Assembly (NCBI GenBank): GCA_964473615.1
Contig: CAYYPQ010000014.1
Location: forward strand, 2,229-66,228
Direction: 5' to 3'
DNA length: 64,000 nucleotides
From: an uncultured Desulfobacteraceae bacterium
Lineage (GTDB): Bacteria > Desulfobacterota > DSM-4660 > Desulfatiglandales > Desulfatiglandaceae
Shown in pieces: positions 38,743 to 39,714 of the stretch. The position numbers and the translations under genes were made by a program. Below the pieces are notes generated by a model that did no database searches, had not been told where the DNA came from, and saw only the letters and a program-made list of their open reading frames with translations. Position 1 is the stretch's first letter. Every line of letters begins with the position of its first letter.

Positions 38743-39714
38743 ATGTTTGATACTGTCACATATGAAAATGCCGCTCTTTTCCTGGGGGCGGGTCTGGCTA
38801 TTGGATTTGGTGCTATCGGCGCGGCCCTGGGTGAGGGCTATGCGGCGGGCCTGGCCAATGAATCCTTGGCCTACAGGCCGGAAAAATCTGGTGAAGTGAT
38901 CAAGAATATGCTTGTGGGGCAGGCCATTGCGGAATCCGCGGCCATCTTTGCCCTGGTCGTCGCCATTATCCTTCTTTTTAGCACGCCATCTTCCCACACT
39001 GTTTTGGCCGCCTGGGCAGCGATTGGGGCGGGTCTTTCCATGGGCCTGTCGGCAATCGGGTCGGGTGTGGGCGCGGGTCTGCCCGCCGGGACGGCCTGTG
39101 TCGGTGTCGTCCGGCAGCCAGCCAATAGCAGTAAGACCCTTACCACCATGCTCATAGGTTCGGCGGTGTGTCAAACCCCGGCCGTGTTTGGCATGGTGAT
39201 AGCCTTTCTCCTTCTGTTTCTTGATTTCTCTTCCGTGCCCGTCTATCCGGGTTGGGCCGCCTTGCTGGGGGCGGGGCTTGCCACAGGCTTGGCTGCTATA
39301 GGGCCAGGCGTGGGTAATGGGCTGACATCCATGAACGCGGTGACAGGGGTTGCCAGGAATCCGGATACCAGCACGGACATGAACAGGGTAATGTTGATTG
39401 GGCTCAGTGTGGCCCAGTCCACTGCAATATACGGTTTTTTGATCAGTTTGATCCTTTTATTTATGGGATTCAAGGAAAGCACGGCCCTGTCTTCTTCTAT
39501 GGCCCTATTGGGGGCCGGCGTCTCTTCAGGCTTTGGAGGCATTGGCCCAGGTATTGGGGAGGGCTTTGCCGCCGCCAAGGCCTGTGAGGCAATAGGTCGA
39601 AGGCCTGAGGAAACACCACTCTTGACGAGGACTATGCTGGTTGGTCAGGCCGTATCAGAATCTACGGGTATTTATTCGCTGGTTGTAGCATTATTGTTGC
39701 TCACTATGGCATAG
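38743..39714 (+). CDS. Fused four-hairpin (8-TM) F-type c subunit; only hairpins 1 and 4 retain the ion-binding Glu
   Basis: 323 aa from the ATG at 38743, which is 5 nt after the atpB stop. There are four consecutive c-subunit hairpins with a period of about 81 aa, each with a GxGxGxG helix-1 motif and a polar loop (RPE/RQP/RNP/RRPEE). The key helix-2 residues are E64 (gaa 38932-34, AIAES), Q144 (caa 39172-74, AVCQT), Q225 (cag 39415-17, SVAQS) and E306 (gaa 39658-60, AVSES). Confidence 0.85.

Follow-up and report, generated by a model that had tools for sequence, protein, structure and literature searches.

The 64,000-nucleotide stretch of DNA analyzed here (hereafter, the window) comes from an uncultured Desulfobacteraceae bacterium placed by GTDB among the Desulfatiglandaceae (GenBank assembly GCA_964473615.1, contig CAYYPQ010000014.1). 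It carries an F-type ATP synthase operon in which the gene following atpB encodes a c subunit made of four fused hairpins, henceforth c4. The c4 open reading frame (ORF) is located at 38743-39714 on the + strand, from an ATG at 38743 to a TAG at 39714, has no internal stops and encodes 323 amino acids (aa). Its start codon lies 4 nt past the TGA stop of atpB (38736-38738). The Pfam scan matched PF00137 (ATP-synt_C) to the protein four times, with a whole-protein E value of 1.3e-60, and the hairpins recur with a period of 81 aa. By its PF00137 profile and its F-type operon context, c4 is an F-type c subunit. A preliminary description of this DNA, made from the sequence alone, had proposed a 323-codon four-hairpin gene with a period of ~81 aa directly after atpB, and the ORF, the four Pfam matches and the 4-nt gap all agree with it.

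The four units were aligned with the single-hairpin (monomeric) c subunit encoded downstream and with the c subunit of Ilyobacter tartaricus, and positions are given in Ilyobacter numbering; the numbering of the I. tartaricus reference was checked for internal consistency only. At positions 32 / 65-66-67-70, hairpin 1 (h1; aa 1-81, 38743-38985, +) reads E / E-S-A-F, with E31 and E64 of the protein at positions 32 and 65, and hairpin 2 (h2; aa 82-162, 38986-39228, +) reads A / Q-T-P-F, with Q144 at position 65. Hairpin 3 (h3; aa 163-243, 39229-39471, +) reads N / Q-S-T-Y, so that it has Q225 in place of the carboxylate and retains S-T-Y, while hairpin 4 (h4; aa 244-323, 39472-39714, +) reads E / E-S-T-Y around E306, and the downstream monomer also reads E / E-S-T-Y. 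In short, h1 and h4 are live, and h2 and h3, where Gln replaces the helix-2 carboxylate E65, are ion-blind (dead). The corresponding codons, GAA at 38932 (E64), CAA at 39172 (Q144), CAG at 39415 (Q225) and GAA at 39658 (E306), are all in frame. The G-x-G-x-G glycine packing motif of helix 1 is present in all four hairpins, as is the cytoplasmic, F1-contacting R-x-P loop (YRP, RQP, RNP and RRP from h1 to h4), which is also retained in 143 dead hairpins of the genome loci described below. The residues and codon positions reported in the preliminary description were recovered without change, and its claim of an F-type c subunit with eight transmembrane helices and carboxylates only in h1 and h4 is borne out by Pfam, the alignment and the AlphaFold2 model.

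In this model (pLDDT 94, pTM 0.90), c4 is composed of long helices throughout, which we read as eight transmembrane helices, and the outer helices of h2 and h3 are broken adjacent to Q144 and Q225. The identical 323-aa protein has been recorded from several sources and contigs, and identical and orthologous 323-aa proteins were found in independent assemblies from NCBI, JGI, ENA and Logan, with at least 60 orthologous clusters of 321-324 aa. Among 24 aligned c4 orthologues (67-89% identity), each hairpin retains its own character: Q144 and P146 of h2 are invariant and T145 is nearly so, and the dead h2 is the best-conserved hairpin, with a mean pairwise identity of 0.746 against 0.68-0.70 for the others. 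The dead hairpins of c4 thus appear to be under purifying selection.

Given its tandem-repeat nature, and nothing else, c4 could be taken for an assembly artefact or for a decaying duplication or pseudogene, a reading to which we assign a negligible probability. Its hairpins are mutually only 35-43% identical, which makes them old duplicates rather than collapsed identical copies. The preliminary description had named hidden stops or frameshifts, and a collapse of tandem atpE copies, among the grounds on which its claim would fall, and none was found in the c4 ORF. A collapse is ruled out by this intact frame, by the divergence of the hairpins and by the many independent orthologues, and the hairpin-specific character kept across orthologues and the confident AlphaFold2 model speak against the artefact reading as well.

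The c4 gene is not a one-off: it belongs to a widespread family of fusions of three to six hairpins (c3-c6), found in several phyla. A protein search over 5.8 billion protein clusters returned 2,394 matches, the best 120 of which were all 4-, 5- or 6-hairpin proteins of 321-490 aa, mostly of ~323, 405 or 487 aa; in the whole library at 50% clustering, 86 clusters were found at E ≤ 1e-30. In a genome scan with one genome per GTDB species, the 80 best loci were inspected. Counts were restricted to these loci, since the 541 tblastn-confirmed stretches may include monomer-only genes. The 80 loci are mostly from Desulfobacterales, with Desulfosarcina, Desulfococcus and Desulfonema represented by metagenome-assembled genomes (MAGs); further MAGs with a fusion bear the labels Latescibacterota, Cloacimonadota, Methylomirabilis, Victivallales and Armatimonadota. 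Complete genomes are among the carriers as well, for example OY771548.1, CP070768.1 and the 6.5-Mb contig of L085. Desulfoferrobacter suflitae DRH4, which is in culture, has the c3 form. In the databases, the fusions are named just "ATP synthase F0 subunit C".

In 77 of the 80 loci, a c3, c4 or c5 gene stands between atpB and a gene for a single-hairpin c, immediately ahead of the latter, and this monomer reads E / E-S-T-Y in nearly all of them. The Desulfobacterales unit has the order Z-I-a-cN-c-b'-b, while the other phyla have a complete a-c3-c-b-delta-alpha-gamma-beta operon; a c6 gene lies within a complete single operon (locus L081), with the monomer next to it. Among c4 fusions, the most frequent pattern at position 65 is that of the window, E-Q-Q-E (n = 73), followed by E-Q-Q-Q (n = 33) and E-Q-E-E (n = 9). 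The c5 fusions read E-Q-Q-Q-E (n = 30) or E-Q-Q-Q-Q (n = 9), and the c6 fusions E-Q-Q-Q-Q-Q (n = 22) or E-Q-Q-Q-Q-E (n = 3). Several c3 fusions read E-Q-E, E-Q-Q or Q-Q-E, and two have no carboxylate at all (L058, 8001-8700, and L076, 8001-8748). The number of dead hairpins per fusion varies from 1 to 5, and c5 and c6 arose through duplication of the internal dead hairpin of the h2 type. As regards the two carboxylate-free c3 proteins, their hairpins read I / S-T-P-F, S / Q-T-P-F, S / Q-S-T-Y and similar, and each gene is followed by a normal E / E-S-T-Y monomer and lies in a complete F1Fo operon.

The sites of a Na+ c-ring are shared between neighbours: E32 and E65 come from one hairpin, V63 O and S66 from the adjacent one, and Y70 and T67 also take part (PMC3692424). 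That T67 and Y70 belong to the same adjacent hairpin as V63 and S66 is our own reading, which that paper does not state. Across 198 fusions, an E65 in one hairpin goes with intact residues 67/70 ([ST]/Y) in the hairpin before it, and its absence with degenerate ones (P/A, F/L; counts 109/1/26/528, odds ratio ~2200), in agreement with this site geometry. The link of residues 67/70 with the E65 of their own hairpin is weak (odds ratio 1.4), and that with the preceding hairpin is negative. This shift-by-one pattern recurs in c3, c4, c5 and c6 and in c1 of Acetobacterium woodii. Since residues 67/70 track the E65 of the next hairpin, the fusions are likely to function in rings with inter-hairpin sites.

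Read in this way, A67/F70 of h1 and P67/F70 of h2 would face the two dead sites of c4, and the S-T-Y of the dead h3 would complete the live site of h4. The S-T-Y of h4 would serve whichever hairpin comes next, and the site of h1 would be completed by whichever hairpin precedes it. Because the degenerate 67/70 of h1 belong to the dead h2 site, c4 would hold two complete and two dead sites; A67/F70 probably do not weaken the site of h1 itself. The putative Na+ motif, E32/E65 plus S-T-Y, is complete in the monomeric c and in h4. Furthermore, the last hairpin has intact 67/70 in 192/198 fusions, including 70 in which the last hairpin is itself dead, and in 8/8 of the fusions with a dead first hairpin. 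In these eight, the following live hairpin must be a monomer, as the last hairpin stays intact.

Two other groups of fused c proteins were observed. A distant four-hairpin family of ~320 aa (26-32% identity), with E-Q-E-D at position 65, comprises P0235 and ~40 related clusters. It occurs at L086 (192-1900) and L087 (131-1096), on short soil-metagenome contigs (2.4-3.2 kb). On these two contigs the last part of an ATP-synt_A gene overlaps with the fusion gene, a glycosyltransferase gene comes after it, and neither a monomeric c nor a b gene follows. Giant single-chain c proteins of 524-1139 aa were also found, with 14, 12, 12, 10, 8 and 7 hairpins in P0155, P0169, P0184, P0209, P0215 and P0174, respectively, and a carboxylate in nearly all hairpins; each may represent an entire ring in a single chain.

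In the window, the genes follow one another as atpZ-like, atpI, atpB, c4, a 317-nt spacer, c, b', b, bactofilin, b', b, delta, alpha, gamma, beta, epsilon. The atpZ-like gene (37474-37662, +; PF09527, ATPase_gene1, E = 1.8e-14) encodes a small membrane protein and heads the operon in related loci too. It is followed by atpI (ORF bounds 37574-38035, +, with the true start probably at ~37640-37660; PF03899, E = 4.2e-6) and by atpB, which encodes the F-type subunit a of 224 aa (38064-38738, +; PF00119, E = 1.5e-49). The monomeric c of 82 aa (40032-40280, +; E32/E65-S66-T67-Y70 by Pfam and alignment), which the preliminary description had placed 300 nt downstream of c4, starts 317 nt downstream, and the first b' (40304-40735, +) and b (40732-41337, +) genes, both matching PF00430, come next. 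The bactofilin gene (41825-42307; PF04519) stands between the Fo and F1 gene sets, and a second b'/b pair (42405-43432, +; 42405-42830 and 42830-43432; Pfam), 27% identical to the first, precedes the F1 genes. Of these, delta (43429-43980, +), alpha (43980-45494, +), gamma (45713-46597, +) and beta (46628-48043, +) were named from their translations and from the gene order of the Pfam-annotated operon L081 (OSCP, ATP-synt_ab, ATP-synt, ATP-synt_DE_N), and epsilon (48057-48467, +) from its ORF translation and operon position only. Homologues of the delta-to-beta genes were present in related loci by BLAST.

The spacer between c4 and c measures 46-52 nt in the closest relatives, with 80-89% identical c4, against 317 nt here, where it contains a dispersed repeat element of ~245 nt (39738-39981, +), with copies at 1659-1906 and 257-385 of the window (86% identity). 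A terminator-like hairpin (39955-39973) followed by a T-run closes the repeat, which may uncouple c4 and c transcription in this genome. The Rfam scan of the whole window gave no match, and the spacer is not a known RNA element.

The translation signals of the two c genes differ. In the window, c4 has a weak ribosome-binding site and the monomer a strong, canonical AAGGAGG. Across loci, the mean energy of the Shine-Dalgarno (SD) duplex is -5.2 kcal/mol for the fusion and -9.8 kcal/mol for the downstream monomer (GGAGG), the monomer SD being the stronger one in 70/77 loci (Wilcoxon p = 2e-11), and the fusion start lies a few nt past the atpB stop. Regarding the two genes themselves, h4 and the monomeric c share 70% protein identity, their DNA is 77% identical over the aligned 58 codons, and they have in common an identical run of 32 nt (39619-39650 in h4 and 40185-40216 in the monomer gene). 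This suggests gene conversion between h4 and the monomer, as between functionally equivalent units.

Some observations concern the surroundings of these genes. Of the two b'/b pairs (40304-41337 and 42405-43432; ~27% identical), one comes after a-c4-c and the other heads the F1 genes; Desulfobacterales Fo operons regularly have their own b'/b, and the c6 operon L081 has a single pair. Alternative stators, or an old operon duplication with reciprocal loss, are among the possible explanations. Bactofilin genes (PF04519) adjoin or lie inside atp operons in several unrelated phyla (L053, L056-L058, L063-L066, L075 and L081). Directly upstream of the atp genes, at 35363-37284 (+), a URO-D-family (MtaA-like) methyltransferase and a B12-binding corrinoid protein are encoded. 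Elsewhere in the window, a 7817-codon ORF (9783-33236, -) has as neighbours a TolC-like outer-membrane efflux protein (PF02321) and three same-strand ORFs of 628-714 aa (regions 33330-34715 and 3253-9358, both -); the group may represent a giant secreted or adhesin protein together with a type I secretion system.

We then compared c4 to known rotors. The best sequence match in the PDB is A. woodii c1 (4bem_J, E = 1e-31), which is also ranked first by Foldseek, followed among solved relatives by A. woodii c2 and by the Na+ rings of I. tartaricus c and Fusobacterium nucleatum c. None of the solved chains compared by fold extends over more than about half of c4, and the TM-score normalized to the query is at most 0.46. 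The preliminary description had rightly singled out A. woodii c1 as the known exception among F-type c subunits: among solved structures, it comes nearest to c4 in sequence as well as in fold. In A. woodii (and Clostridium aceticum), c1, the V-type-like component of the F/V hybrid Na+ rotor ring, is likewise a c of more than one hairpin; its gene stands between atpB and an atpE for a single hairpin, within an F-type operon that includes atpI, and the partner monomer likewise has the Na+ motif. Its dead hairpin has Gln in place of the carboxylate, its h1 is live but degenerate (E-T-S-..-F) and its last hairpin reads Q-T-T-..-Y, following the same shift-by-one logic. However, A. woodii c1 has two hairpins (~18 kDa), one dead and one with a site, whereas c4 has four, two adjacent ones dead and two with sites; the site chemistry also differs, being Q32/E65 in A. 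woodii and the two-carboxylate E32/E65 in c4. Moreover, unlike c1, the fusion family reaches 5-6 hairpins, up to five of them dead, plus the carboxylate-free c3. Both A. woodii c1 hairpins score best against generic or monomeric c (54-60% identity) and reach only 34-43% against h1-h3. Direct orthology is therefore not supported, as the c1 hairpins are closer to generic c than to h1-h3, and this comparison suggests that the Desulfobacterales fusions come from an independent duplication, probably an independent and older invention of the same design.

The F. nucleatum c11 ring (PDB 3ZK1) shares E32, E65, S66, T67 and Y70 with the monomeric c and h4, and its sites are built from two adjacent hairpins; unlike the fusions, it is built of identical single-hairpin subunits, each with its own site. 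Hairpin duplication with carboxylate loss, which lowers the ion/ATP ratio, is found in V/A-type proteolipids (eukaryotic c/c'/c'', Enterococcus hirae NtpK and archaeal c of 2, 3 and 13 hairpins), and V-type c can be superposed at ~2.5 Å on each pair of successive hairpins in the c4 model. The window operon, conversely, is of the F type (a, b, b', delta, alpha, gamma, beta, epsilon), and V-type chains match c4 at E values of ~1e-6 to 1e-7, against 1e-31 for the F-type c1. A V/A-type origin of c4 is ruled out by this operon and by the far weaker V-type matches. In V-type rings, live and dead hairpins alternate, whereas the dead hairpins of c4 are contiguous. Engineered c subunits also provide a comparison: in the Bacillus PS3 FoF1, constructs reportedly due to Mitome et al. 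have c fused into chains of two to ten hairpins. In these fused c2-c10, covalently linked F-type hairpins form functional rings (PMC8809890); they are artificial, and a single E56Q kills synthesis, whereas two E-to-Q hairpins are conserved in nature here.

As for earlier reports, the full-text literature search found no description of an F-type c with more than two hairpins, although an earlier mention remains possible; the preliminary description, which knew of no F-type c4 fusion, therefore stands on this point with the same reservation. A 2026 paper on Desulfatiglandales mentions just "two to four atpE copies."

Taken as a whole, the sequence evidence indicates that c4 is a true component of the rotor in an F1Fo ATP synthase for which Na+ coupling is predicted. 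We consider it rather probable that one c4, or a few, and several monomeric c are combined in one hybrid ring. The preliminary description had offered a lowered ion/ATP ratio or a hybrid rotor with the downstream monomer; we favour the hybrid rotor, and the lowered ratio is a proposal as much as the rotor is. The hybrid ring is favoured because the last hairpin is intact in 192/198 fusions and a monomer is paired with the fusion in 77/80 loci, because a weak fusion SD contrasts with a strong monomer SD, and because of the apparent gene conversion between h4 and the monomer. Fusions with one or zero carboxylates would make no working ring alone. The weak SD, together with a start just after the gene of subunit a, present once per complex, argues for a low c4 copy number. 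Coherently, in A. woodii the ring contains c2/3 and c1 in a 9:1 ratio (PMC8904574; PMC9171764).

In such a ring, c4 would co-assemble with several downstream-encoded monomers as A. woodii c1 does with c2/c3 (1:9), and a contiguous block of two ion-blind positions would result, so that each turn would carry two fewer Na+ than the hairpin count. The neutral Gln would mimic a protonated or ion-bound Glu, and could face lipid as well as the interface with subunit a, with no ion on it. We infer the ring size, as well as the co-assembly, the copy number, the Na+ coupling and the physiological direction; assuming 11 hairpins, as in solved Na+ rings, c4 plus seven c would move 9 Na+ per 3 ATP, i.e., 3.0 rather than 3.67 per ATP. 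Such a lower ratio would be of advantage to an anaerobe whose phosphorylation potential is low or, alternatively, would permit a steeper Na+ gradient when the enzyme pumps. At 50 kJ/mol, the calculated driving force needed rises from ~141 to ~173 mV when the ratio goes from 3.67 to 3.0. The phosphorylation potentials of A. woodii are 30-38 kJ/mol (PMC9171764), and in this range a ratio of 3.0 stays feasible. The clustering of the dead hairpins is also in keeping with the Bacillus PS3 fused c, in which defective c subunits do less harm side by side than apart (PMC8809890).

Several points weigh against the hybrid ring. A single E56Q in the engineered fused c10 of Bacillus PS3 abolishes ATP synthesis (PMC8809890), and by analogy it may be difficult for a loaded motor to get past two neutral positions in a row. 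The h1 of the window c4 is live, so that the argument from the last hairpin cannot separate a hybrid ring from (c4)n. Na+ specificity is proposed from motif matching, and the analogy with A. woodii may reflect convergence and not inheritance. Twenty-six cases depart from the shift rule, and its p-value is inflated, the sequences being related. Finally, the terminator-like repeat separates c4 from c in this genome, so that independent expression is possible.

The last point also bears on a different arrangement, a c4 homo-oligomer such as (c4)3, with 12 hairpins, 6 sites and 2 Na+/ATP, formed as a condition-dependent alternative to a monomer-only ring. Twelve hairpins are divisible by 3, 4 and 6, the commonest fusion sizes, and both terminal hairpins of c4 are live, the last one having S-T-Y, so that head-to-tail c4-c4 contacts would complete the sites; the terminator-like repeat could permit separate expression of the two genes. 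We nevertheless hold this arrangement to be improbable: c5 does not fit 12 hairpins, the c6 E-Q-Q-Q-Q-Q and the carboxylate-free c3 could not drive synthesis alone and yet have the same monomer synteny, the fusions with a dead first hairpin retain an intact last one, and the weak SD and the start just past the subunit a gene argue for low copy number. A mainly structural role receives equally little credence from us. In that case c4 would be a pre-formed arc that, with AtpI, nucleates the ring and sets its size or register, the carboxylate loss being a tolerated side effect. Hybrid-ring assembly in A. woodii does need its own AtpI (PMC8904574), atpI and atpZ precede atpB here and in most loci, and the fusion sits immediately after the subunit a gene. 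Gln65 and Q-T-P-F, however, are strongly conserved rather than drifting and the dead hairpins range systematically in number, from 1 to 5, both of which look like selection on ion count; moreover, a structural role does not exclude a hybrid ring.

The direction of the enzyme raises a further alternative, namely that it works mainly as an ATP-driven Na+ pump, with a logic similar to that of V-ATPases, because an unpowered neutral block would be unfavourable against the F1 load. The E56Q block of synthesis in the PS3 fused-c10 enzyme (PMC8809890) is in line with this idea, as are fewer carboxylates, the classical signature of a pump (PMC9171764), the existence of fusions with 3-5 contiguous dead hairpins and the occurrence of the family in fermentative or syntrophic phyla such as Cloacimonadota. 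We take it as a serious rival but judge it rather unlikely, since in several phyla the operon is the sole complete F1Fo operon seen in the locus, and sulfate reducers need a chemiosmotic synthase. The hybrid ring of c4 and monomers remains our preferred reading.

The ion-to-ATP ratio is the central bioenergetic parameter of rotary ATP synthases, and for the F-type it is taken to follow from how many single-hairpin c subunits there are. To our knowledge, A. woodii, with one dead position in eleven, is the lone structurally characterized exception. With its family, c4 would represent a kind of F/V-type hybrid rotor, in a large family for which no published description was found. What may surprise specialists is the presence of contiguous ion-blind blocks of 2-5 hairpins in F-type rotors. 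It is plausible, but still tentative, that the F-type ATP synthases of many anaerobic bacteria have hybrid rings with one fused block (c3-c6) of 1-5 contiguous ion-blind hairpins among normal Na+-binding c subunits. If so, they would form a natural graded series of "gear ratios" down to ~2 Na+/ATP, and a sector of 65-165 degrees would be able to get past subunit a unpowered, something that a single engineered E-to-Q disallows in the Bacillus PS3 enzyme.

The shift-by-one signature tells which neighbour each hairpin serves, and three questions would become testable: how a rotor passes several neutral positions; whether synthesis can proceed at ≤3 ions per ATP in energy-limited sulfate reducers and syntrophs; and how assembly fixes ring stoichiometry. 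The cultured carrier, D. suflitae DRH4 with its c3, makes such experiments feasible. In general, the family suggests that hairpin fusion, with a contiguous run of the hairpins silenced, is a means by which bacteria have repeatedly tuned the ion-to-ATP ratio.

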